Notes: generated by a model not told the origin, from the sequence alone. A stretch of DNA of 64,000 nucleotides from a virus (IMGVR_UViG_3300001373_000001:1-64000), one strand, 5' to 3'. Counted from the first letter of the stretch, positions 3,474-63,520 are shown. A program made the numbers and translations.

Positions 3474-4076
3474 ATGAATATAGTTGAACCAATTAGAGAC
3501 ATTAAGACAATTAAAAATATTAGATCTATATTAAAAAGTCAATCAACACGAAATGAGCTATTATTCATTCTTGGAATAAACGTTGGAATTCGTGTTAGTG
3601 ATATACTTAAACTTAAGACTAAAGACTTGTTGATGCCAAACAAGAGTATTAAAGACCATGTTGTAATAACCGAAAAGAAAACTGGTAAAACTAAAAAGTT
3701 CTATATAGGAGACATAGTAAGAGAAGTGATACATGACTATTATAAAGACATTAATGACTATAATCCAGATAAATATGTATTTGATGGAAGAAAAGGTGAT
3801 TTAGCCATATCTAGACAACAAGCATATAGGATATTAAATAAAGCTGCTGAATTAATTGATTTAGTAGAGAGAGATGGTAACAATAGACTTATATCTGGAG
3901 AAATTGGAACTCACACGCTCAGAAAGACATTTGGTTATCATGCTTATCAAAACGGAACTTCACTAAGTCTATTAATGCAAATATTTAATCATTCATCTGA
4001 ATTCCAAACATTGAGATATATTGGCATTACAGAGGATAACAAGAAAAATGTTTATCTAAATTCTAATTTAGGATAG
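3474..4076 (+). CDS. small tyrosine recombinase (catalytic domain only, resolvase-like)
   Basis: GIRVSD, EKKTGK, HTLRKTFGY, FNHS, TLRYIG: full R-K-H-R-H-Y catalytic set. Confidence 0.92.
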   Translation: MNIVEPIRDIKTIKNIRSILKSQSTRNELLFILGINVGIRVSDILKLKTKDLLMPNKSIKDHVVITEKKTGKTKKFYIGDIVREVIHDYYKDINDYNPDKYVFDGRKGDLAISRQQAYRILNKAAELIDLVERDGNNRLISGEIGTHTLRKTFGYHAYQNGTSLSLLMQIFNHSSEFQTLRYIGITEDNKKNVYLNSNLG

Positions 4077-6151: not shown

Positions 6152-6890
6152 ATTTCAACAAACATTAACTAATAATTTAAACAATATAGATGATATATTC
6201 GATAATATAGATATTAAATATGGTAAACTTAAACCATATGCTATACGTATGAATAGGGCTTTATTACTAGCGACTTATAATAGAGATCAAGATATAAAAG
6301 TATTAAATGTAGGGTCTAGAACTCTATCTTACATATTATTCGATGATTCAATAAGTTATAGAAAAGTTAAAGTAACTATGGCTCATTTGATATATTTTGG
6401 ATTTATAACTAGAATAAGCGCTAAAGAATTTACTATAAATAAATATAACTTAAAAGATATACAAAGTAATATAATTAGATATGAGGGATTTAAATATAAC
6501 ATAAATAGAATGACTATAAAAGAAGTTGCTGATAAAGAAGGTATAGAAGTTGCAAATAATATATATATTGAAAAAGAATTGATGGAATTTGTTGACGATT
6601 TTTTTATAAGCTCAAATTCAATAGAAGTAGACTCGGACTATATAATGGTTAAAGATTACATAATATCAGCAATACTAGAGAATGGATATATAATTCAAAA
6701 AGATGTTCTTAAATATTTCTGCAAAAATAAACTTATGGCATGCCATAAAGTAAGAATTAATATAATTATAAGAAACATGATTCAATTTAAATTAATATAC
6801 ACTAGAACATGTGATGAGTTTATGAAAAATAAATTCAACTTATTTAATGTTAATTCTCGCTCTAAAATTATACTAAATATGAATGATTAA
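6144..6890 (+). CDS. putative winged-helix protein, paralog of 4321-5097
   Basis: LSYILFDDSISYRKVKVTMAHLIYFGFI and YIISAILENGYI align with 4321. Confidence 0.6.
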   Translation: MNKFQQTLTNNLNNIDDIFDNIDIKYGKLKPYAIRMNRALLLATYNRDQDIKVLNVGSRTLSYILFDDSISYRKVKVTMAHLIYFGFITRISAKEFTINKYNLKDIQSNIIRYEGFKYNINRMTIKEVADKEGIEVANNIYIEKELMEFVDDFFISSNSIEVDSDYIMVKDYIISAILENGYIIQKDVLKYFCKNKLMACHKVRINIIIRNMIQFKLIYTRTCDEFMKNKFNLFNVNSRSKIILNMND

Positions 6891-20519: not shown

Positions 20520-20924
20520 ATGAATGAGAATAAATTTGAGAATAATTTTACAGTGGATAAGTTAGCATATATAATAATGGAATATGGATTACCAACATCA
20601 GCTTTGACAGATAAACAGATAATAGAGTTATGTAGTATAATATATGAATATAGAGAAGTAGATTATTCAGAGTATTATAATATTAACTGCGATCACTGTG
20701 TTCATGAGTTTCTTAATGATGTTAAAAGTGTTATTAAAAAAGCTCAACATACTTATACTTGTGAGCTTGAAATTGGTGATATATATAATTTGAGATTAAT
20801 AGAACTTGTAGTTATTAAAGATATATTGAGTAAGTTAGATAATGATCTTAAGAATGAATATCATAAGTTGTCAATTGATTTACAGTTAACAGATTGCTTA
20901 GTTTATATGATTGGATTGTTGTAG
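20520..20924 (+). CDS. hypothetical protein
   Basis: AAGGAG RBS, 134 aa. Confidence 0.65.
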   Translation: MNENKFENNFTVDKLAYIIMEYGLPTSALTDKQIIELCSIIYEYREVDYSEYYNINCDHCVHEFLNDVKSVIKKAQHTYTCELEIGDIYNLRLIELVVIKDILSKLDNDLKNEYHKLSIDLQLTDCLVYMIGLL

Positions 20925-21116
20925 TTAGAGTATTCGTGAATTCACTGCGATCATAATTACCCCCACACTGTGTGTTATTGATATAAGACTATAGCTAATA
21001 AAAGATTATATAATATTACTATATACTGTTTGTGACTTATAATGGATACTCACTTGGCTTCCTAGATATTGGGTTTTCTACCTGATCACACTGCGTAGGG
21101 TGGTGTCGGGAAAACG

Positions 21117-21130
21117 AGAACAAACGTTCG
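21117..21130. promoter_or_regulatory. LexA/DinR SOS box
   Basis: AGAACAAACGTTCG fits the Firmicutes GAAC-N4-GTTC consensus with correct flanks. Confidence 0.65.
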
Positions 21131-21475
21131 TACTATGCACGTAATATAGGGGAGTGTCGTTCAGAACACCAGAACTTACCAAATTTGGAATAATTTGATT
21201 TGGTGTATATTTTACTTCTATAGTAACTTATGGATATTTTATTACCATAAATTCTAAACTATAACTAATTATGGTTATAGATGAAAACAAGAACACATTT
21301 TTTTATGTCTGGGAAATTTTAACAGTCGAAAAAGATGTATAGATTTATAAATAGATGTATACATATATATACTATATATACTGTAGGTTTAGAAGTGTTC
21401 TATTTGGTAATTAAAGAGCCTGTTAACTGGAAATTATATAGTAACTAGTCTCAAAGTAGCTAATAGCTTGATTCT

Positions 21476-21506
21476 AAATGTAACAAAAGTAGTATTTGTA
21501 ACATTT
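21476..21506. other. candidate tyrosine-recombinase (dif/res-like) site
   Basis: AAATGTAACAAA-agtagta-TTTGTAACATTT: 12-bp inverted arms with 1 mismatch, 7-bp spacer. Confidence 0.45.
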
Positions 21507-21849
21507 CCAATATTGGAATAAAATAGAATTGATATTTCAAGTGCTGTAAACAATTACAGTTATGTAAGTATTTTACTTGTTTGTTAGACTATAGGAGATC
21601 GTATGTTCTTATATATATGGTAGATATTGTAAGTATTATTTATGGGAAAATGTCCAAAAGACGTTGAAAATATACATTTTTTCAGGCAATGAGGCTACCC
21701 TATCGGGTTTTGTCATAACTGGTAATAAATTAAACATTCATAGTCTTACCAAATATATCCTAACAAATATAAACAAATATTCAAACATATGTATCCAAGA
21801 CCTCGTGACATGTCCCCGGACTAGTTTCTACTCAACTATACAGGATTAA

Positions 21850-23440
21850 CTAAAAAACAATAACATACACTATAAAAAACACGCCTTTATTAATAACTAA
21901 CCTTTAACACAACTAATTAACCTTATAACTCTATACAATACTACACTTCAATCAAAACAAATCATATACAACTAATCAAAACAAACAAAAAAATAAAAAT
22001 AATATCACAAAACATAAACATTAAACAAATAACAAATAACAAATAACAAACATTAACTAACTAACAAAACTAACTATTCTATCATTATTAACTAACAACT
22101 ATCTTAGATCACTCAACACTAACAAACATTAACTATTATATAACTAACAATAACATTACATTTAACACAACTAACTAACCTAACAACTTATACAATCACA
22201 GCAACACAGCAACAACAACAAGCATACAACTAATACACTATACTATACATACTATACTATATACATATTATATATATTCTTCTCTCATCTCATCAACTCT
22301 TATACAACTCATTAATTAACATAAATTGCACACAATCTAAACAAACATTGTACACAACACAATTATAAAATCAAATCTTATACAACTCAATAATAAAAAC
22401 ATATTGAATAAAACCAAATATCAAAACTAAATTGTATAAAATATAATCCTAAAATTAAAATATCAAAATCAAATTTTCAAATCAAAATTATTAAATCAAA
22501 ATTATCAAATCAAAAAATACAAATCAAATTGTATCAAACTAAAATAATCAACTCAAAAAAATCAAACATATCTTTAATACAATTCAAATCAAAATATTAA
22601 ACTCAACTCTATAAATATACTAACAATTACCAATATTATTTCCAGCTCTATAATAACTATAACACAATACAATAAACAAATCTAATACAACTAATAAAAT
22701 CTATAACACTACAAACATATACATTACATCAATTAAAACTAACTAACAATAAATTCCATGTATAAATATACCAAACAGGCAGCACGTCCACCAGAGAGCC
22801 ACTAAATTTCCAATACAATATATTCCAATACAAACTATATAACTAAATCTCTAAACTAAACAACACACTACATAAAAACTATAAAACAAATAGTATACAA
22901 CTAATAAACTATAACTTGTATTAAACTAATTGATACAAATAATCTATATAAAATAACTAAACTAAAACAGTATAATATATATCTATCTTGAACGCAAAAT
23001 AAGCACACTACAAGCATAATAAAGAGAGTGCGCTAATAATATAAAATACTAAAAACATAATGCTACAATAAGCATATAAGCAGTAAAGCATATAAGCAGT
23101 AAAGCATATAAGCAGTACTATTATATAAGCAGTACTACATAACTATATCTGTATAGCTGTAATCAAACTAACTAATAAACTAATAACTGAGTCGCTAAAA
23201 CTAAACATCTAACTATCAATAAAGCTGTAAAGCTATATACACCTTTTAAGCTCTTTTAATCATATCAACCTTATAAAATTACATCTAAATATAAACATCG
23301 CTCAACACACCTTAAAACGTCAAATAACACTATATCCTAAACAATCCCATAATACTAAAAACAGGATCTTAAATCAAACTAATATTGTTAAAAAATTAAC
23401 ACACTATAATAAAAAAAGACTAGTATAAAACTAGTCTAGT
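21850..23440. other. non-coding, extremely G-poor (A/C-rich) block I
   Basis: no credible ORF; G nearly absent on + strand; AACAAAT and ATCAAA micro-repeats. Confidence 0.8.
23070..23134 (+). repeat. 16-bp tandem repeat AAGCATATAAGCAGTA x3 plus one variant
   Basis: copies at 23070, 23086, 23102; variant at 23118. Confidence 0.9.
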
Positions 23441-23443
23441 AAA

Positions 23444-24031
23444 TTATTTTTTTGAATGAAATGAATCAATTAAAAATTCTAAAGTATAGTTGGTTAATAT
23501 CCAACTTATTTCATCTATATCAATTTTATTCGATTTACAATCACTCAAATTATTACAAACATTAACTAAATCATTAAAGCTGTATTGATAACTTGATACA
23601 ATAGTATGTATTACTTCAATTCCATTTTCAAACGTTTCAATTATAAATTCATGTTTGTATAATCTCTTAGTATCGCTTTCGATCGCAATCAATAACTTTA
23701 ATAAAGATTCATACTTAAATGATAAATCAAAATTATCTTTACTATTACACCTATCGATTCTATTCTTCAAATAATCGTACAAATAACTAAATAAAGTCAT
23801 AAAATTATTACTCTCATCTATATAAAACTTTAATTCATAATCACTATTAACATTTTTTGAATTGTATTCAATCTTAATACTACACTTATAACAAAGTTTT
23901 TTGTTATGTACGTCTCTATTCATAAGCATAAAAGCATTATTAAAAGCCTTTAAAGTATTAAAACTTTGCTCAAAATCATGGTATTTTTTACCCTCATATT
24001 TTAAATAAATCTTTAACATTCTATACCTCAA
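23444..24031 (-). CDS. hypothetical protein, paralog of 24241
   Basis: YEGK..H.F...FN, LKFY, ESD.KR.Y.HEFIIE shared. Confidence 0.75.
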   Translation of the reverse strand: MRYRMLKIYLKYEGKKYHDFEQSFNTLKAFNNAFMLMNRDVHNKKLCYKCSIKIEYNSKNVNSDYELKFYIDESNNFMTLFSYLYDYLKNRIDRCNSKDNFDLSFKYESLLKLLIAIESDTKRLYKHEFIIETFENGIEVIHTIVSSYQYSFNDLVNVCNNLSDCKSNKIDIDEISWILTNYTLEFLIDSFHSKK

Positions 24032-26705: not shown

Positions 26706-26812
26706 TTTTTTAGTCCACCTTTTTATTATTAATATTAACTCAAAACGTGTAGTATTGCACGTTGTGAGCTTGTTTTTAATAACAACTAAGCGACTTATTA
26801 ACCTCAACCAAC

Positions 26813-26832
26813 TATTCAATTATCAAAGTTCA
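26813..26832 (-). promoter_or_regulatory. boxA-like antitermination site
   Basis: TGAACTTTGATAATTGAATA, 17/20 identical to the copy at 29252. Confidence 0.55.
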
Positions 26833-26983
26833 ACTAACATAGTGTTAGCGCTGTCTATAACTGTTATTACAACTATACGACTATAGATATCAGAACGATA
26901 TCAGAACATAGTCATAACTATAATAAATTGAAGAATGCTTGATGTAAACAAGTTGTGCTTGTGTACCGATTGGGTACATTACA

Positions 26984-27012
26984 ATAGTAACACCATGCAC
27001 AAACAAAGTCAA
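26984..27012 (-). promoter_or_regulatory. sigma-A promoter, leftward
   Basis: TTGACT-17-TACTAT with extended TG and upstream A-rich tract. Confidence 0.75.
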
Positions 27013-27019
27013 CAACTTT

Positions 27020-29050
27020 TTTTAAATATTTTTTAAAATACCTACAACGTACTAATACCAATGCATATAGCCATTATATTTTTTTAAAAACTAACCCATT
27101 AACTGTAATCAAATCCACTAAATAACATAAATCTAAATACATATAGTGTAACAACTAACAAACAATACCAAATATACCATAAAACAATTTTAAAAAATTA
27201 TATGTATTACCAAATCATACAAGTAGATTTTACCAGTAGATACCAGCATTACAACTATATACCATCAAATTCAATACATAATATCCCAAAGCTAACACTA
27301 TATTACATCTATAAATAGTATACAATCTAAATATTTTTAAAATTAATCAAAAAAAGACCTCTAAAACATAAAACTATATAACCTTACAATCCAGCAACTA
27401 AACGGATACAAACAATAAGCACGCCAAAACTAACTAAATAAAAAACTTTAAAATATTTTAATAAACGTTTAAAACACCTCTTAAAGCTCTCGTTGATCAC
27501 TAATAAAACTAATTAAACTAACCTATTTTAAAGTCGCTGTATACCCTTTAAAATCTCAACTAGAGCTATATTAAAACAGTATCGAAACACAACTAATAAA
27601 TAAACTCGATATTACTCAAATTTAAACATATTTTTATAACTTTAATACAATTAGAATATATACAATCTATTACAATAAAATGCTTGAAGTGTGCAATAGC
27701 AGTACATTATAAGCATACTAAAAACCTATAGACTTATCCATAAGCAGTCAAAAATCAAACCTGCATAAATACCAATAATACCAGCAAATCCAGTATTAAC
27801 AACGTTTTAACGCTTACATAAAATCAACACTAAAACGTCAAAAAAGCATAAGCAGCTAGTTACCACATAATGTAAAACTCCTGCATAGGCAGTCATTACA
27901 GTATCATAAGCACTAATAATCCTTATAACGTACTATAATAGCCAAAATATAAGCATACAACACAATCAAACATAGTCAAATAAATAAATATATGATATAC
28001 TACAATCTAACCTAAAAAATTACTTCTATATATAACAAAAAAACAACTCAAAAATATATCCCAGAATATACCAAATATAAATTTGGCGAATGACTAAGTT
28101 ATATTTACAAATATTAACAAATATAGTCTGCTGGGTAACTTTTCTAGTTATATTTACATCATATTCTATATAATACATATATTTACATTTTCAATATCGT
28201 GGTGGATCTGTACGCATCTATAATTCTCGAGTTCCCATAAATCTAATATCCACAATCTCTAACACACTCATTTTTAAAGATAAGTTCGCATTATCGTGTG
28301 TAAAATATAGGTCTGGCGAATTCTATCGGTCAAAAAATTCTAGTCAAATAATTCTACTCTAAGGATATCCAAGCACTCAAAAATATATCGATTTCTTATC
28401 AAAATAGATACTTGCAAAATATCATTAAAATACACTCATCTAATACAGTAATACCATATGTTTTACATATATAAAAAACATATAAAAACTACCTTAAAAT
28501 CCATGATCGGAACAACAAAAATTAATAACATTTTAATATATGTTTAGTATATTATTATTATATTTTTATTAATCACATAACATAAACTAATTATATATAT
28601 CTTATATACTTAATCCTGTATACCTAACCAAACAACTCTAAAACATATCTTATCTATCTAACATCTATCAAAATCCTATCTCATAAACTCACAATAGCCT
28701 TATTTAACGTTTATAGCCTCATAGAGCGACTTTATTATAAAAGATATCATATTATATAGCCAACACTAAAACAGCTATTATATGACCAAATACGAGCGCA
28801 CAATAAATAATACATATTACAACAATATAACAATAAATATTATATATAATGCATATAACCAATAAACTAACTATGCTTACAATATTATACATTAGGCAGC
28901 TGGATCAATTAAACTTTATCAAAAAAACTTTTAAAAAATTCTACAAATATATTACATATATTACAAATAAATATAATTGCATAAAACTAATTAATCCTTT
29001 AAAGCTACTATAATACTACACTATAAAATATATAAAATAATTTAAAAAAA
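27020..29050. other. non-coding A/C-rich block II between divergent promoters
   Basis: about 2 kb without ORFs, strong C over G skew. Confidence 0.8.
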
Positions 29051-29053
29051 ATG

Positions 29054-29082
29054 TTGACATTGTACTTGCATAGTCGTATAAT
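29054..29082 (+). promoter_or_regulatory. consensus sigma-A promoter, rightward
   Basis: TTGACA-17-TATAAT preceded by A tract. Confidence 0.88.
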
Positions 29083-29251
29083 TATAAATGTCGAAAGACA
29101 AGCGACACACTAATTGAATATATAACTTAATTACAGTTACAATTATTGTTGCTGTAAGCTTAATAGCTATATTAGAAATAGCATACATATTAATAGCTTG
29201 CACACGCTAGACTTTAGACTAATAGCATCGTTCGACTCGATACTAGTAAAT

Positions 29252-29271
29252 TGAACTTTGAAAACTAAATA
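29252..29271 (+). promoter_or_regulatory. boxA-like antitermination site
   Basis: TGAACTTTGAAAACTAAATA resembles Firmicutes rrn boxA (CTTTGAAAACT). Confidence 0.6.
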
Positions 29272-29529
29272 TAATGATATTATTTGATTTGATTTTACGA
29301 TTTAATTTTAAATAATATCTGTACAATGTTTGATAATGATTTTTTAAAATCAAATTTAGTGCCACAAACCACTAGAGTAGTACATTTTAAAATATTATAA
29401 TCAAACTGAATACTATAAAATTCTATTGCATTATATCAATATGAATTGTTAGATTCAAATTGTATAGATACCATTTTGAAATTAAAAAAATGAAATTAAA
29501 AAAATAGAATTAAAAAGGGGTTTTGAAAA

Positions 29530-49851: not shown

Positions 49852-52800
49852 ATGGAAATCAGTAAATGGTTAGAAACACAGCTTCAAAGAGATATTTGGA
49901 GCAAAAAATATAGAAATGGCGATGAAACTTTTGACCAATGGTTAGATAGAGTTTCAAATTCTAATCCTAAAATAAAAGATTTAATTGTAAATAAGCAATT
50001 CTTGCCAGCTGGAAGAATACTAGCTAACAAAGGATTACAAGACATAGGAAAGAAAATAACATACTCTAATTGTTTTGTTAAAAATCAAATGGTTACAACT
50101 CAAAGAGGATTAATACCGATTCAAAAAGTAATTATTGGTGATTATGTTTTGTGTGATGATAATACATGGTCAGAAGTAGTTAACTTGTCTAATAGACTAT
50201 ATGAGGGTGACCTGTATAGAATCAAGACTAAATATAATTTCAAAGATTTAATTTGTACTCCAAATCATCAAGTTATGACTAGAGATGGATGGAAAAGAGT
50301 AGATAGATTGATTCATAAAAATAGAGGTTTAGAGTTCCATGATGAGATTAAAATAACTAAAGTTGATGGAATTAATAATCAAGAAAGAGTATTAGATTTA
50401 TCTCAATTTATTTTAAGTGATGATAAATACAATGTTGAAGTACTAGACTATACTTTAGTTATAAGTAGAATAAACTCAAGATCAAAAAGAGTTTATAAAT
50501 CAGATAGATATATTACTCTAGACTCAGATTTATATTACTTAATTGGTAGATTTATTGGGGATGGATGGCTTAATTATAGTGAAGATGATGCTAGTTATAT
50601 TTTTGGAATTGTATTCAACTCACTTAATGAAATGCATTCATATGAGAAATGTAAAGAAATTATAGAGTCTAAATTTGAATGCGAAACAAGTTGCTATGAA
50701 CCAAAAGACTCACATTCTATAGTACTTAATACTAAAAGCATTGTTGGATTTAAATTACTAGAAGTTTTAGTTGGTAGATATTCTACACATAAATCTATAC
50801 CAGAAATTATGATTGGTAATTTAGATGTTGTGTTAGGAATACTTGATTCTGATGGTGGAATAGATAAGAATGGAGTAATAAGAATAGGACTCAAAAATGC
50901 TTATTTAATAGAGCAGATCAGAGAGACATTGCTATTAAATAATATTATAAGTTCTGAATCAAAAGTTGTAAGTAATGGTATTAAAATTAATAAATCTAAG
51001 ACTTTTAAATCGCAAACATTTGTTAATAAAAAAATGAATAGAAAATTGATGCCTTTACTATCTAAATGCTATACAGACTTGAGATTGAATAAAGTACATG
51101 ATAAAATAATTGATTACAATGAAGTTATAGACATTATCATAGAAGAATCTATGGAAGTATTTGTATATAATTTAGAAGTTAAGAATATACATAGTTATAC
51201 AGTAAACGGACTAATGGTTAAGAATTGTTATGTTTTGCCACCTCCACAAGATAATATTGAAAGTATATTTAATACTGGAAAAGAGCTTGCGAGAACGTTT
51301 TCATATGGTGGTGGAGTTGGATTATCTCTTAGGGATATATCTCCAAAAGGTATGAGGCTTAATAATGCAGCGAAAGAAACTACAGGAACTATAAGTTTTA
51401 TGCAATTGTATTCTGATGTTACAGAAGCTATAAGTCAACAAGGTAGAAGGGGCGCTTTGATGCTATCAATGCCAATTTCTCATCCAGATATAATAGACTT
51501 CATCAACATTAAAACAGACCTTACAAAAGTTACAAAAGCTAATATTTCTATTGAAATTACAGATGAATTTATGATTGCTGTAAGAGAAGATCAAGATTAC
51601 ACAATGAAATTTACTAGAACTGAAACAGGAGAAACTATATCAAATACTATTAATGCTAGAGAATTATTTAAAATTATAGCTAAAAATAATTGGGATTATG
51701 CCGAACCAGGTATTTTATTTTGGAACAACATTCAAAAATGGAATTTACTATCCGAAGATGATAACTTTGAATATGCTGGCGTAAATCCATGCATTCCTTT
51801 AGGTCAGTATATTCTAACACCAACTGGTTATAAGAAAATACAAGATGTCGATGGTAAAATAAGCTTATGTGGCAGACATTTTGAATGCTCTGAATTAATA
51901 CCAAGTGGATATAAAAATGTAGTAGAAATAAGAACTGAATGTGGAAATATAATTAGGGTATCTGAGAACCATAAGATATTAACTAAAAATGGAGATAAAT
52001 TTGCTAGTACATTGACAGATAAAGATGAGCTTGCTATGGATTTTAAACCTATTCATAATTTTGTTATAAATAACTATGATGAGTATGAAAAAGGTATTGT
52101 TGTTGGTTGGTTTATTAGACATTGTGTAATTTATTATGATTCATATATATTAACAATTCGACCAAGGCACAAGCAATTTAAAGATGAGTTAATCAAGTAT
52201 TTAAGTAAATATTTCACTAATTTAGAAATATATCAAAAGAATAATAAAACGAATATATCTCTCAAGAATTGTCCAGAACTAAGTGCTTTCATAGAAAATG
52301 TTTTATACAATCAAGACTTGCATAATGTAGATATTTTAAATAGAAGTAAGGACTTCAAAATAGGTATTATTAAAGTTTTTATAACTAGTGGAAGATTTGA
52401 TACTAAGAATAGAAAAATGTTTAGATCATTATCTATAAAAGATGATTATAGACAATTGCAATTACTGCTTGCTGAATTTGGAATTCTAACTAGTAGGTAT
52501 GGAAACCACTGGAAAAGGATTAGTTTTCTAGAAAATGGACTTCATTTTATTGGAGCATTGACTAGTTCAGTTAATTTCGAAATTAAAACTATGCAAAGAT
52601 CAATTGATTTTAAGACTAAAAAAAGCTATCAAAAAGTAGATTATGTAAAGCCATTAGGAGTAATGCCAGTATATGATATTAACGTTCCTAAGACTGGTAG
52701 ATTTAATCTAAACTCTATAGTAGTTCATAACTGTGCAGAAGAACCATTGCCAGCCTATGGAAGTTGTAATTTAGGTAGCATAAACTTATCAGAATTTGTT

Positions 52801-54369
52801 GCAAACGAATTCACATTAAAAGCTAAATTTGATTATTATAGATTTAATTCTGCTGTAAAAGAATCTGTTATATATCTAAATGAGATACTTGATGAGGGAC
52901 AGTTATTACATCCATTAAAGCCACAACAAGAGGTTATAACAGACTGGAGACAAATAGGTCTAGGAATATTTGGACTAGCTGATATGCTTATTAAAATGCA
53001 AATTAGATATGGTTCGGATGAATCAATTGATGTTTGTAGGAATATAGCTCATGCAATGGTTAATAAAGCTGTTGAGACTTCTGCTTTACTTGCTAAGGAT
53101 CAGGGAACTTATAAAATGTACAATAAAGAAGCTATTTTAAAAAGTGAATTCTTAAAATATAATTGCTCAAATGAAACTATTGACTTAGTAAGACAATATG
53201 GACTTAGAAACTCTCAGTTATTAACTATAGCGCCAACAGGATCACTCTCAACTTTATTTGGAGTTAGTGGTGGTATTGAACCTATTTTTGAAACTCATTA
53301 TACAAGGAAGACAGAATCATTACATGGTGAAGATGTATACTATGACGTGTTTACGCCAATTGTTGATAAGTATATGAAACTTAAAAATATAACAAAAGAA
53401 GAGTTGCCAGACTTTTTTGTAACTTCTATGAATTTAGATTACAAAGAGAGAATTAAAATGCAAGCTGTTTGGCAAAGATCAATTGATGCTAGTATTAGTT
53501 CTACTGTTAACTTAAACGAAGATGCAACAATAGAAGATGTTGAAGAGTTATATATGTTAGCATGGGAACATAGTTTAAAGGGTATTACAGTGTTTAGGAA
53601 CAATTGTAAAAGATTAGGCATACTAACTACTCCAATGAAGAAAGAACCTGTTGTAGAGCCTGCAAATGTTGTTGAGAGCGTAACATATGCAAACAATTCA
53701 CAAGTTCATTATATAGATTCTAATGGAAAATCTATTGAAATAAAAGTTGATACTAAACAACAAGAATTAGAAGTTCCAACAGGTTTACTATATACAAAAT
53801 ATAAGCTTAGAACAGGATGTGGAAATCTCTATTTATTTGTTGGAGCGGACTACAAAAATAAGAAAATTTACGATATTTTCGTAAATACTGATGGAACTAG
53901 TGGCTGTATGGTTAATACTATATCAAATGCTAGGTTAATTTCGAAATTATTAAGATTAGGATGTCCTCTAGAAGATATTGTAAAACAATTAAATAGCTCT
54001 GGAACTTGTAATAGTTATACTAATTCTAGAACTAAACAACTTGCGTACAATGAAATGTTGAAAAAAGATATCAGTGATAATTTGAAGAAAGAATTGGAAA
54101 ATAAAATAGGCGTTCCAATTTCAAAAGGTAAATCCTGCTCAAGTGCTATTGCCAACATTCTTATTGATATTAACAATAAGTTTATATCAAAAAATAATGA
54201 GGCTGCTGCTACTGATCCATTAGTAGTTAACCTACCTTATTTTCCAGTTACAAATAATGTAATTATTAAACCTTTAAGTTATGAAAATATTGAATGTAAA
54301 CACGAAAACATGAGATTTCAAGAAGGTTGTAATGTCTGCCCAGATTGTGGATATTCAAAATGTGATTAA
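49852..54369 (+). CDS. nrdJ: class II (B12) ribonucleotide reductase with two inteins and TSCPD-type C-terminus
   Basis: PAGRIL, SNC, GGGVG, RRGA, NPCAE (after splicing), CNLGS, IAPTGS, KGITVFR, EGC..C..CGYSKC. Confidence 0.95.
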   Translation: MEISKWLETQLQRDIWSKKYRNGDETFDQWLDRVSNSNPKIKDLIVNKQFLPAGRILANKGLQDIGKKITYSNCFVKNQMVTTQRGLIPIQKVIIGDYVLCDDNTWSEVVNLSNRLYEGDLYRIKTKYNFKDLICTPNHQVMTRDGWKRVDRLIHKNRGLEFHDEIKITKVDGINNQERVLDLSQFILSDDKYNVEVLDYTLVISRINSRSKRVYKSDRYITLDSDLYYLIGRFIGDGWLNYSEDDASYIFGIVFNSLNEMHSYEKCKEIIESKFECETSCYEPKDSHSIVLNTKSIVGFKLLEVLVGRYSTHKSIPEIMIGNLDVVLGILDSDGGIDKNGVIRIGLKNAYLIEQIRETLLLNNIISSESKVVSNGIKINKSKTFKSQTFVNKKMNRKLMPLLSKCYTDLRLNKVHDKIIDYNEVIDIIIEESMEVFVYNLEVKNIHSYTVNGLMVKNCYVLPPPQDNIESIFNTGKELARTFSYGGGVGLSLRDISPKGMRLNNAAKETTGTISFMQLYSDVTEAISQQGRRGALMLSMPISHPDIIDFINIKTDLTKVTKANISIEITDEFMIAVREDQDYTMKFTRTETGETISNTINARELFKIIAKNNWDYAEPGILFWNNIQKWNLLSEDDNFEYAGVNPCIPLGQYILTPTGYKKIQDVDGKISLCGRHFECSELIPSGYKNVVEIRTECGNIIRVSENHKILTKNGDKFASTLTDKDELAMDFKPIHNFVINNYDEYEKGIVVGWFIRHCVIYYDSYILTIRPRHKQFKDELIKYLSKYFTNLEIYQKNNKTNISLKNCPELSAFIENVLYNQDLHNVDILNRSKDFKIGIIKVFITSGRFDTKNRKMFRSLSIKDDYRQLQLLLAEFGILTSRYGNHWKRISFLENGLHFIGALTSSVNFEIKTMQRSIDFKTKKSYQKVDYVKPLGVMPVYDINVPKTGRFNLNSIVVHNCAEEPLPAYGSCNLGSINLSEFVANEFTLKAKFDYYRFNSAVKESVIYLNEILDEGQLLHPLKPQQEVITDWRQIGLGIFGLADMLIKMQIRYGSDESIDVCRNIAHAMVNKAVETSALLAKDQGTYKMYNKEAILKSEFLKYNCSNETIDLVRQYGLRNSQLLTIAPTGSLSTLFGVSGGIEPIFETHYTRKTESLHGEDVYYDVFTPIVDKYMKLKNITKEELPDFFVTSMNLDYKERIKMQAVWQRSIDASISSTVNLNEDATIEDVEELYMLAWEHSLKGITVFRNNCKRLGILTTPMKKEPVVEPANVVESVTYANNSQVHYIDSNGKSIEIKVDTKQQELEVPTGLLYTKYKLRTGCGNLYLFVGADYKNKKIYDIFVNTDGTSGCMVNTISNARLISKLLRLGCPLEDIVKQLNSSGTCNSYTNSRTKQLAYNEMLKKDISDNLKKELENKIGVPISKGKSCSSAIANILIDINNKFISKNNEAAATDPLVVNLPYFPVTNNVIIKPLSYENIECKHENMRFQEGCNVCPDCGYSKCD
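50071..51225 (+). mobile_element. intein 1 (385 aa) with LAGLIDADG endonuclease
   Basis: SN|CFVKNQMV...GLMVKN|CYV; IGRFIGDG and LGILDSDG motifs. Confidence 0.92.
51790..52731 (+). mobile_element. intein 2 (314 aa) with degenerate endonuclease
   Basis: NP|CIPLGQYIL...SIVVHN|CAEE; block B SENH. Confidence 0.92.
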
Positions 54370-60904: not shown

Positions 60905-61041
60905 TAGGTTAGAATCTTTAAATTGTCCAGAGAATTTTACATTTTTGTAGTATTTTTACAGATATGTACATAAAAAAAGCAATATCAAATATATATTACT
61001 TTTTTCAACTATGTACAAACTAATATGTTTACATTAGTTAT

Positions 61042-61301
61042 CTGCTTTCAATATAGCAATTATTAGCTTCAATTCTAACAAATTAGTAAAGCTTAGTATC
61101 GTTTCAATGTACAATTGTTTAATATTTTCAACTGTTTCAATAATAGCAATTGTTGTCAACTAACCGTCAAGTAACCGTCAAGTAACCGCATGTTTTCAGC
61201 TTTCAATATACAATTGTCGTTTATGTCTGCTTGCAACATAGCAATTATTAAATCTAAATTAATATCAGTTTCAATATACAATTGTTTAAATATTTTCAAC
61301 T
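61042..61301 (-). repeat. tail of truncated/degenerate CRISPR repeats with short spacers
   Basis: about 19-20-nt repeat-like units at 61045, 61101, 61134, 61200, 61230, 61268. Confidence 0.75.
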
Positions 61302-61592
61302 GTTTCAACATAACAATTGTTGTTTGCAAACTAATTAAGTTGAATTCAATTTAAATTAATGGTTTGCAGTTTCAACATAACAATTGTTGTTTGCAAACCA
61401 CATACTAACAAAACAAAAGTTAAAACTCGAACGTTTCAACATAACAATTGTTGTTTGCAAACGCAGAAATAGTTGGTAATGGTAGTAAAAAAACAAGGTT
61501 TCAACATAACAATTGTTGTTTGCAAACACTGCATTTTTCGATTATTAACCATCCACCATAATGTTTCAACATAACAATTGTTGTTTGCAAAC
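61302..61592 (-). CRISPR. CRISPR array: 5 identical 30-nt repeats, 4 spacers (37, 34, 35, 35 nt)
   Basis: GTTTCAACATAACAATTGTTGTTTGCAAAC at 61302, 61369, 61433, 61498, 61563; minus-strand repeat ends in TTGAAAC. Confidence 0.97.
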
Positions 61593-61659
61593 GCTTTTCG
61601 AAACTAGCTTTCAAAAATTACAAAACCTCTAACTAATCATTACAACTAGCTTTTAAGAT

Positions 61660-61805
61660 TTTGTTCCAAGTACAATTGCATTTTGCTATCCAAGTGGATA
61701 GGGTGTCTATATAGTTCTTGGAAACTCAATAGACTTAACGAGCGGAAGCCAACTACCAAGTAGAATTACGACGAATACTCGCTTTTAGCCGCCAAATCGG
61801 CTTAA
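61660..61805 (-). ncRNA. Cas12f tracrRNA
   Basis: TATAAT right after the cas12f stop; stems AGCCG/CGGCT, GCGAG/CTCGT, GTCTAT/ATAGAC, CTATCC/GGATAG; 3' anti-repeat CAAAATGCAATTGTACTTGGAAC. Confidence 0.75.
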
Positions 61806-61818
61806 GTACTATTATATA

Positions 61819-63090
61819 TTACTTTTTATTTTTTTTCAACTTCTTTTTTATTATTTCTTGATTATCTGGGTTGGAAATATTTTTAGCAGCATTATAATCT
61901 GCATCAAGTTTTACTCCACAATTAACACAAACAAATTCATCTCTTTTTACTCTATTGTCTTTATCTGTATGCCCACACCCACTACACTTTTGACTAGTGT
62001 ATCTTGGGTTTATAAGTTTAACTTCAATTCCAACTTCATCAGCTTTGTATTTAATCTTTTCTTGTAAATCGAAATAGCTCCAATCTTTAAGAAATAACTT
62101 ATCTTTTTTAATATTTGATAAGTCTTCCATCTGTATTATTTTACAGTTATTCTTAACTGCTAATCCTACAATATATTTAGAATATTTATGGTTAATCAAA
62201 TCTTTAAAATTAGCTATTTTCTTTCTCACAACTCTTACATATTTAGACCTATGTTTATATCCTCGACCTTTTATAGCATCGCTTTTTATGCTAGATTGCA
62301 AAGACTTTAATAAAGATTCTTGTTTCTTTCTAAAGCTGTCTATTTCGCCTCCTCTTATGTGATATCTTTTTAAATTATTATTAAATGCCATATAAGCAGC
62401 ATTTACTATTCCCATGTCTATACCCATTATATTTTTATCACTTAAAAGTAACTCTTTCTTTTCCATACAATATGTTAAATTAATGAACCATTTATTCTTA
62501 CTAAAAATTATCATTGAAGCTCCGATTTTATACTCTCCAGATAGCACGCTTTCAATTATTTTCTTTTGGTAATTACCATCAACTTTAATTTCTACGCAAA
62601 CATGGCAACTACCTTCGTTTCTTGCAAATAACCTTAAGTCTACATAATACTTATTTTCATTTTCAATAACTTCTATGCTCTTAGAATGTAAATCTATAAT
62701 ACTATTTTTATAAGATGGAATAGACATCTCACCTTTTAAAAACTTCTTCTTACTATCATTCCATTTCTTGCAACCTCTTTGAATAGAAGTTGAAATATTA
62801 GCTTTCGATAGCATTGGGTATTCGGTTCTGATTACTTTATCACAATACCCACTAAAAGATTTGTATCCTAATATACTTAATATATCTGGTTTACACTCAT
62901 GTTTGATATAATAATCCGAACAATAATTATTCCATTCCCAATTTAATCTAATTGTTTTGTTCAATACTTTTTGTGTTTGGTCTTGAAACTCCACAAGTTG
63001 TTTCTTAAAATCTTTGAAATCTATACCCTCAGAATCGATTATCTGAAAGCGCATCACTTTATTTATTGTATCAATTTTTATTTCGTCCAT
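61819..63090 (-). CDS. cas12f1: type V-F CRISPR effector Cas12f1 (AsCas12f1-like), 423 aa
   Basis: MSIPSYK, LSGEY..GAS, GIDMG, GGEI..FR, QMEDL, YTSQ.C..CG, C..CG...ADYNAA.NI; adjacent array and tracrRNA. Confidence 0.92.
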   Translation of the reverse strand: MDEIKIDTINKVMRFQIIDSEGIDFKDFKKQLVEFQDQTQKVLNKTIRLNWEWNNYCSDYYIKHECKPDILSILGYKSFSGYCDKVIRTEYPMLSKANISTSIQRGCKKWNDSKKKFLKGEMSIPSYKNSIIDLHSKSIEVIENENKYYVDLRLFARNEGSCHVCVEIKVDGNYQKKIIESVLSGEYKIGASMIIFSKNKWFINLTYCMEKKELLLSDKNIMGIDMGIVNAAYMAFNNNLKRYHIRGGEIDSFRKKQESLLKSLQSSIKSDAIKGRGYKHRSKYVRVVRKKIANFKDLINHKYSKYIVGLAVKNNCKIIQMEDLSNIKKDKLFLKDWSYFDLQEKIKYKADEVGIEVKLINPRYTSQKCSGCGHTDKDNRVKRDEFVCVNCGVKLDADYNAAKNISNPDNQEIIKKKLKKNKK

Positions 63091-63091
63091 C

Positions 63092-63520
63092 TCATTCCTC
63101 CAGCATATTGTATATACAAAGTATGGACATATTAGCTACTTGACTTTTATTTACACCCCATTTTTTAGCAAGGTGTATTGTCAAATCATTAACGGAATTG
63201 AGCATATTGAATGATACATGTGTTGTATCTTTATTCTTCTTTATTCTATTATATGCAGTTCTAACATCATCAATATCTTTTATTTTAAATTTCAAATCTT
63301 CAAAACTTGTTTTTTTATCAATTAATTTATTAATTTTCAATAAATCTTCTTGACTCAAGTTTTGTAAGTTTTCTATAATATTATCTATAGAAGTTTTAAT
63401 TATAATCTTCTCTTTAATATTTTCTTGAGTTTTATTTTTTTTTGGATAATTAGCAGCTTGTTCTATATCTATATCTACGCCTTCATTTTTATTCTTCTTA
63501 TTCATTTTCATACCTCTCAT
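63092..63520 (-). CDS. putative ribbon-helix-helix partition adaptor (type Ib ParB/ParG-like)
   Basis: C-terminal HVSFNM...LAKKWGVNKSQVAN; directly downstream of parA. Confidence 0.6.
   Translation of the reverse strand: MRGMKMNKKNKNEGVDIDIEQAANYPKKNKTQENIKEKIIIKTSIDNIIENLQNLSQEDLLKINKLIDKKTSFEDLKFKIKDIDDVRTAYNRIKKNKDTTHVSFNMLNSVNDLTIHLAKKWGVNKSQVANMSILCIYNMLEE

Follow-up and report, generated by a model that had tools for sequence, protein, structure and literature searches.

IMGVR_UViG_3300001373_000001 is a 118-kb tailed-phage genome whose first 64 kb, the 64,000-nucleotide stretch that we analysed and call the window, holds a miniature CRISPR-Cas12f locus at positions 61,302 to 63,090. 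We read this locus as a functional-looking, type V-F1-like Cas12f module whose guides would be directed against late genes of close relatives of the phage while the carrier's own matching sites are spared, and we give this reading a probability of about 0.6. Judged by its sequence and a structural model, the locus is a true Cas12f1-type system, with an effector gene, a structured RNA downstream of it and a short repeat-spacer array. It has unusual traits, namely spacers that match the phage itself, changed residues for reading the protospacer-adjacent motif (PAM) and a near-palindromic array that is possibly convergent with the effector gene.

A compact effector and its guide RNA

The cas12f gene (61819..63090, minus strand) is single-copy in the phage genome and encodes an AsCas12f1-like type V-F effector of 423 amino acids (aa). 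Its product matches Pfam Cas12f1-like_TNB (E 3.9e-23), and its best PDB sequence matches are AsCas12f chains (E 1e-95), with 42% identity to AsCas12f over 421 aa. An AlphaFold2 model, with a predicted local distance difference test (pLDDT) score of 83.5, returned AsCas12f cryo-electron microscopy structures as its top Foldseek matches (template-modeling score ~0.7), followed by OsCas12f, SpCas12f1, CnCas12f1 and Un1Cas12f1 in that order. Across 34 aligned sequences (the effector and 33 homologues), D225, E322, R380, D398 and C369/C372/C388/C391 are invariant; D225/E322/R380/D398 align to AsCas12f1 D225/E324/R383/D401, and the four-cysteine (CCCC) finger aligns to the CCCC finger of that protein. 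We defined a type V-F1 effector as a 400-700 aa protein with Cas12f1 homology in which the RuvC triad is intact and the C terminus holds a zinc-ribbon (TNB) domain, and the 423-aa protein has each of these features in its sequence and AlphaFold2 model. An earlier note, made from the sequence alone, had described a 423-aa effector with the RuvC D/E/D residues and a Zn finger, with motifs close to those of AsCas12f1. The open reading frame (ORF), family matches and invariant residues agree with this description, as do the residue mapping and the AsCas12f E-value with the claimed closeness.

AsCas12f1 itself, from Acidibacillus sulfuroxidans (type V-F1; PDB 8J12, 7WJU, 8DZJ), is 422 aa long and shares with the phage protein the domain order, the RuvC triad, the Arg and the CCCC finger. 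Its single guide RNA also has four trans-activating CRISPR RNA (tracrRNA) stems followed by the anti-repeat (10.1101/2023.07.03.547593, cited, as are all papers here, from the portion of the text available). Unlike AsCas12f1, the system described here is carried by a phage and lacks adaptation genes, its repeat is 73% self-complementary, and its array may converge on the effector gene.

The effector shares ancestry and a RuvC plus zinc-ribbon core with the TnpB proteins of IS200/IS605 elements. On a rival reading, the gene would be an IS200/IS605-type TnpB transposon gene with an omega RNA and not a CRISPR system at all. A TnpB element would be expected to match the curated TnpB models over its full length, to have transposon ends and, as a rule, several copies, and to have a guide RNA that overlaps the 3′ end of the gene. 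The best NCBIfam model for the effector is indeed the general guided_TnpB (187 bits, cut-off 100), and Pfam OrfB_IS605 gives a weak match below its cut-off. The sole Cas12f-specific NCBIfam match is to Cas12f2, whose cut-off of 450 bits is not reached (119 bits), and no Cas12f1 model in that library matched the effector. The specific transposon models, however, fall far below threshold (70 of the 425 bits required for IS200_TnpB, 44 of 350 for IS607_TnpB), and ISDra2 TnpB is matched at E 8e-7, as compared with 1e-95 for AsCas12f. Unlike those elements, the phage has a separate tracrRNA that starts after the stop codon. We consider the transposon reading extremely improbable: the gene is single-copy, and a TnpB element is ruled out by the tracrRNA and the five-repeat array with distinct spacers, with transposon ends not specifically searched for.

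The predicted tracrRNA scaffold occupies 61686..61805 on the minus strand and is supported by a covariance model, by covariation and by the minimum free energy (MFE) fold. It consists of stem 1 (61802-61787, with the loop AUUUGG), stem 2 (61783-61737), stem 3 (61734-61705) and stem 4 (61701-61686), followed directly by an anti-repeat (61662..61685) with the potential to pair with the repeat over ~20 bp, all on the minus strand. A consensus scan places a sigma-70-like promoter, TTGAAA-17-TATAAT with 11/12 matches, at 61811..61839 on the same strand; this site overlaps the end of cas12f and stops 6 nt before the 5′ end given by the covariance model, which would put the start near 61805. The same element follows the cas12f stop codon in three viral relatives (L008, L011 and L009), where it opens with a 5′ hairpin and continues with a stem of the form CGAG...CUCG, the linker UAAG, two further hairpins and a complement of the local repeat.

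From these three sequences and that of the phage we built a covariance model and searched the window and 82 further loci. It produced 52 matches (E up to 1), every one of which adjoins an effector gene on the same strand, and the match in the window scores 95 bits (E 1e-19). In the family alignment, which was fitted to the model and so somewhat favors the structure, 95.6% of cells are paired and 21/25 pairs show double changes, values reached by 0/500 shuffles; sliding the partners by 1-3 columns drops pairing to 29-42%. On free-energy folding alone, the minus strand adopts all four of these stems (-36 kcal/mol, z -1.5), whereas the plus strand does not fold this way (z 0.0). Rfam at its gathering thresholds had no matches over the window. 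In three related large phages (IMG/VR contigs L016, L018 and L074, 136-177 kb), the tracrRNA element is present in 2-3 copies, and arrays flank the effector region on either side.

Contigs from public sequencing runs add a second line of evidence. In freshwater metagenome contigs, the tracrRNA stretch 61667-61817 has no differences, as against 5-10% divergence in pieces of cas12f, and in two sediment metatranscriptome runs from one study 61563-61781 differs at 3/219 nt and 62241-62523, within cas12f, at 31/283 nt. By these figures, the RNA region has changed less than the protein gene; where the public runs gave no contig cover of the locus, they are uninformative. A shared change at 61732, which we mapped onto the MFE fold, converts a stem-3 C-G pair to U-G on the minus strand and would leave an A-C mismatch on the plus strand.

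The array (61302..61592, to which no strand is assigned here) begins 227 nt past the cas12f stop codon. It has five identical 30-nt repeats, which in the plus-strand reading are GTTTCAACATAACAATTGTTGTTTGCAAAC, starting at 61302, 61369, 61433, 61498 and 61563; the search found exactly these copies, and a backwards control had 0 matches. The four spacers all differ and lie at 61332-61368, 61399-61432, 61463-61497 and 61528-61562 (37, 34, 35 and 35 nt). The array thus adjoins the effector gene, and computationally a tracrRNA with its anti-repeat is predicted between the two, as we would require of a type V-F1 locus. Both the five repeats with four distinct spacers and a structured tracrRNA with an anti-repeat had been claimed in the earlier note. 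The repeat search bears out the former, and the covariance model, the covariation and the repeat-complementary tail agree on the latter. The architecture named there (5′ hairpin, CGAG stem, UAAG) is conserved across the viral relatives.

On the side of the array away from cas12f, six degenerate partial repeats span 61040..61301, and this zone includes a diverged duplicate of the junction preceding the first full repeat. A tandem 11-mer, GTCAAGTAACC, lies within the decayed repeats (3.1 copies, 61155-61188), ~2 kb from the parA-like gene discussed below. Identical 15-nt direct repeats at 60990-61004 and 61813-61827 flank the block of tracrRNA and array; each copy is part of a promoter-like site on the minus strand, which suggests that the promoter region was duplicated. 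We considered spacer 1 as a decayed repeat and dropped the idea, since the likeness is weak (43/1000 shuffles reach the score). A contig joint that skips 61010-61814 shares 21 nt of the promoter-like duplicate, has flanks unlike those here, and was treated as unrelated. Matches of 17 and 18 nt between the array region and positions 6780 and 58532 are near chance in this AT-rich genome, by our estimate.

Loop-to-repeat pairing and the strand of the array

The repeat equals its own reverse complement at 22/30 positions (73%), so it reads much alike on both strands. In Cas12 systems, a short pseudoknot duplex joins the repeat's 3′ end to the tracrRNA (10.1101/2025.01.20.633832), and in AsCas12f1 the short repeat:anti-repeat duplex R:AR-2 is coaxially stacked on stem 1 (10.1101/2023.07.03.547593). 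Among the viral relatives, the 6-nt stem-1 loop pairs through its nucleotides 2-5 with positions -5 to -2 or -4 to -1 of the repeat, and the pairs covary between loci (TTCA:TGAA, TTCG:CGAA, CTTA:TAAG, CTCG:CGAG, TTGG:CCAA and TTTA:TAAA, in loci L008-L048). Pairing at all four positions occurs in 12/16 combinations of relative locus and array when the repeat is read on the gene strand and in 1/16 on the opposite strand. In relatives with non-palindromic repeats, the anti-repeat duplex also favors the gene strand (-23.1 against -8.1 kcal/mol for L008; -37.2 against -12.4 for L044).

When the same rule is applied to this phage, it points the other way. The loop AUUUGG pairs 4/4 with CAAA of the plus-strand repeat and 3/4 with GAAA of the minus-strand repeat, and the anti-repeat duplex reaches -20.3 kcal/mol with the plus-strand repeat (equalled by 3/300 shuffles) as opposed to -12.5 kcal/mol with the minus-strand repeat (177/300). 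Spacer 2, which matches the phage genome perfectly, also sits nearer the start of a plus-strand array than the mismatched spacer 4. Against the plus-strand reading, all assessed relatives are co-oriented with their gene, and the decayed repeats occupy the trailer position of a minus-strand reading. Nor did a consensus scan predict a promoter on the plus strand ahead of the array, or any terminator; scans of this kind do not decide the strand. On balance, we lean slightly toward a CRISPR RNA (crRNA) that would be transcribed from the plus strand, convergent with cas12f.

By homology with AsCas12f1, the tracrRNA would pair with the repeat in two places, namely the long duplex after stem 4 and a pseudoknot of 4 bp that joins the stem-1 loop to positions -5 to -2 of the repeat. 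This RNA pair would then be bound by a homodimer of Cas12f, which would cut PAM-flanked double-stranded DNA that matches the spacer; OsCas12f and RhCas12f are described as dimerizing on their guide RNA (PMC13186708). With less certainty, we hypothesize that the guides are aimed at the holin and tail-module genes of closely related phages entering the same cell, that the matching sites of the carrier are spared, for example by lacking a PAM, and that new spacers might be acquired from the adaptation module of the host or by recombination.

Spacers that match the phage's own late genes

Two of the four spacers match the genome that carries them. Spacer 2 is identical at 34/34 positions to 67698-67731 of the genome, with the identity running 1 base into the repeat, and such a match has a chance expectation of <1e-9 as estimated from base composition. 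Its site falls in the gene of a holin (112 aa; phrog_608, E 1.3e-7) beside the endolysin, in the part that encodes the N-terminal membrane segment. Spacer 4 is identical at 33/35 positions to 82560-82594, within a 680-aa ORF of the tail module, and both matched genes are on the minus strand. Read in the frame of the gene, spacer 4 differs from the phage's copy by one Arg-to-Ile and one silent change, and its donor was therefore probably a related phage, not this exact genome. A freshwater contig contains the spacer-4 target region with a flank unlike that of the phage, and the phage's repeat is also found in freshwater contigs beside other spacers.

Whether the self-matches would be cut depends on the PAM. 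For a type V-F1 system, a T-rich or C-rich PAM on the 5′ side and RNA-guided cleavage of double-stranded DNA by an asymmetric homodimer would be expected. In AsCas12f1, the bases of the NTTR PAM are read by H72, Y76, S92 and K96 (10.1101/2023.07.03.547593), which align to S80/D84/S100/Q104 of the phage effector. Three of the four are changed (H72 to S, Y76 to D and K96 to Q), and Tyr76, retained in 25/34 family members, is Asp here. The PAM of the phage Cas12f is therefore probably not NTTR. The flanks of the two own protospacers have no clear common motif: they are AATTCC and TTTGTAA in the minus-strand reading and ATAGAA and AACAGA in the plus-strand reading.

Self-matching spacers could also be deliberate, used by the phage to restrain its own late genes while it is carried as a plasmid-like prophage, or else to drive gene conversion between alleles in mixed infections; plus-strand crRNAs, which the RNA pairing favors, would also be antisense to the holin and tail mRNAs. 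In keeping with this, both self-matches fall in late genes on the minus strand, and the parA-like gene before cas12f together with a tyrosine recombinase suggests a carried state. The RuvC site is intact, however, so PAM-dependent binding would cut the genome, and the shared orientation of only two spacers has a 50% chance of arising at random. Nor do any of five related viral records contain self-matching spacers, and we found no precedent, as viral spacers are described only as host- or rival-directed in the available text of PMC11656645. A broader version, in which an active Cas12f is aimed by design at the phage's own holin and tail genes (for late-gene control in a plasmid-like carried state or allele conversion in mixed infections) and operates with a near-palindromic repeat read convergently or on both strands and served by one tracrRNA, seems to us improbable, and deliberate self-targeting as first put, slightly more so.

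Alternatively, the module may be a recent capture from a host, in which the array derives from part of a bacterial V-F array already immunized against this phage family, hence the spacer matches, and is tolerated by the phage with no adaptive role yet, either because the phage's own sites lack a PAM or because the system is poorly expressed. That 2/4 spacers match this phage and that the genome has no adaptation genes would fit such an origin. So would the effector tree, a quick and partly unresolved one, where viral and Bacillota Cas12f-like sequences are interleaved around the effector, as expected from repeated exchange. On the other hand, selection seems to act on the module, given that the tracrRNA and leader are far more conserved than cas12f and that the catalytic residues are intact, and the array of a relative with the same repeat and other spacers suggests turnover within the phage lineage. 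We also found no bacterial genome with the repeat, which had 0 matches in metagenome contigs, or with a close effector; the closest non-self protein is metagenomic, with 52% identity, and pairs with the effector in the tree (Shimodaira-Hasegawa-like approximate likelihood ratio test support 99). We regard recent capture as unlikely.

Equally unlikely, in our view, is an assembly artefact, whereby two co-occurring strains were merged so that the array comes from one and the holin and tail alleles from the other, and no self-targeting virion exists. The genome is a metagenomic record, close variants that are 0-10% divergent along the locus co-occur in public runs, and the spacer-4 target occurs with a variant flank. 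Yet the contig is closed by 99-bp direct terminal repeats and rated 100% complete, and at the contig level we saw no direct sign of chimerism.

Several observations weigh against a module that works against relatives and spares its carrier. In the presence of a PAM, the perfect self-match of spacer 2 would be expected to kill the carrier, and self-matching spacers occur in 0/5 related viral records (a control on this genome recovers both), so self-matching is not a habit of the family with a known solution. The evidence on the array strand is divided, with RNA pairing favoring plus and the gene order of relatives favoring minus. No host array with the phage's repeat was found in a search of JGI metagenome contigs with a 23-mer of the repeat (0 matches). 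RNA-library contigs that cover the locus may contain DNA. Finally, the spacers had no meaningful match in other phage, plasmid, viral or metagenome contig records. Exact cores of spacers 1 and 3 had 0 matches in IMG/VR and the spacer-4 core 0 in JGI metagenome contigs, in scans that, like that of the repeat, may omit the window's own record. Relatives of the two target proteins were also absent from IMG/VR. Sensitive searches of the whole array returned a 30-nt, 90% match in four Clostridium phages (E 0.3) and one 79% match among plasmids (E 0.3), which we took as chance; these scans, too, may omit the window's own record.

The earlier note had proposed that the system serves competition between phages and, as a check, that the spacers be searched against phage and plasmid databases and the PAM derived. 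The searches named no target elsewhere, and the flanks gave no clear motif. The competition claim holds in part: 2/4 spacers match phage late genes and the changes in spacer 4 suggest a related donor, but the matches are in the phage's own genome, and no record of another phage or of a plasmid was matched by a spacer. The system may plausibly be used against related phages.

A phage-borne module without adaptation genes

The IMG/VR record is 117,989 bp long and belongs to a tailed phage by its PHROGs matches, which include a large terminase, a portal, a 2441-aa tape measure, a minor tail protein, an endolysin and a holin; matches of the replication type are a DnaB-like helicase, a DnaE-type polymerase, a RecJ-like exonuclease and a ParA-like protein. 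The G+C content is ~26%, and the window has no tRNA genes. Directly upstream of cas12f is a 142-aa ORF without a family match (63092-63520, minus strand), preceded by a gene for a ParA-like ATPase on the same strand (63498 to beyond 64000). The ends of the three genes abut or overlap, making cas12f the last gene of a parA-like cluster. At near-identity, the locus matched nothing among the INPHARED phages or the PLSDB plasmids.

Elsewhere in the genome, a small tyrosine recombinase (3474-4076; Pfam Phage_integrase, E 1e-20) and a DnaD-like loader (65240-66412), together with the ParA-like ATPase, are hints of a prophage that is carried, perhaps in the manner of a plasmid. A 1505-aa ORF for a B12-dependent ribonucleotide reductase (49852-54369) also matches N- and C-terminal intein splicing models and probably carries at least one intein. 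Two stretches of ~2.5 kb, 20900-23450 and 26800-29500, are almost without ORFs of at least 90 aa. The first sits on a sharp GC-skew switch, has AT-rich tandem repeats (a 14-mer in ~11 copies at 22452-22606 and a 16-mer in 4 copies at 23070-23134) and may be an origin or regulatory zone.

Adaptation modules (cas1, cas2, cas4) are found in some, but not all, V-F loci. Pfam models for Cas1, Cas2 and Cas4 had no match in the window, as the earlier note had claimed, or in the whole genome, and control genomes responded; Cas1 was likewise found in 0/40 related viral records, 14 of them at least 90% complete. Without cas1, cas2 and cas4, the phage would need recombination or a host adaptation module, whose borrowing the earlier note had suggested, to gain new spacers. 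According to PMC12607003, nearly all CRISPR-bearing phages are without adaptation machinery, and the adaptation module is not a defining feature of systems borne by mobile genetic elements.

Searches with the single protein of the locus had recovered only one viral and one distant bacterial relative. Of 261 pattern matches in IMG/VR, 227 encode relatives of the effector, and a small array adjoins the gene in ~35 of 82 loci by a crude detector (a few are probably coding repeats). IMG/VR contigs often contain Cas12f-like genes that have a tracrRNA and a mini-array but no Cas1.

Cas-phi, Cas-lambda and Cas12p effectors are 500-800 aa proteins from other branches of Cas12, and Cas-phi is not known to need a tracrRNA. 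Unlike Cas-phi, the phage system is a Cas12f1 relative with a tracrRNA, and the PDB entry for Cas-phi is matched at E 0.007, as compared with 1e-95 for AsCas12f. Like the phage system, Cas-phi (Cas12j), Cas-lambda and the Cas12p "hacker" are described as phage-borne single effectors with small arrays and no adaptation module, and phage compact type V systems are thought to target the DNA of rivals (10.1101/2025.01.20.633832, PMC12607003, PMC11656645). SPV1 and SPV2 likewise have short viral arrays with spacers that match genes of very close relatives, with an array only, which uses the Cas proteins of the host, and spacers that target the related virus (PMC11656645). Unlike these viruses, our phage also carries an effector and a tracrRNA, and one of its spacers matches the carrier perfectly.

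Compact type V systems of phages that lack adaptation genes are already on record, as are arrays by which viruses target related viruses (PMC11656645, PMC12607003). The available text of one survey reports none in the f1 group (PMC12607003), and that of another reports phage Cas12f as not found at all (PMC12676247). The viral V-F1-like group therefore seems under-described rather than unknown.

At 423 aa, the effector is as small as the smallest characterized Cas12f editor, and because its PAM-reading residues are unlike those of AsCas12f1, new target sites may open. For the phage itself, the perfect match to its own holin raises the question of how a CRISPR-bearing phage would avoid cutting itself while fighting near-identical rivals. 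For the family, the conserved tracrRNA element and the pairing of its stem-1 loop with the repeat would offer a simple predictor of guide RNAs and array orientation in many uncharacterized viral Cas12f systems.

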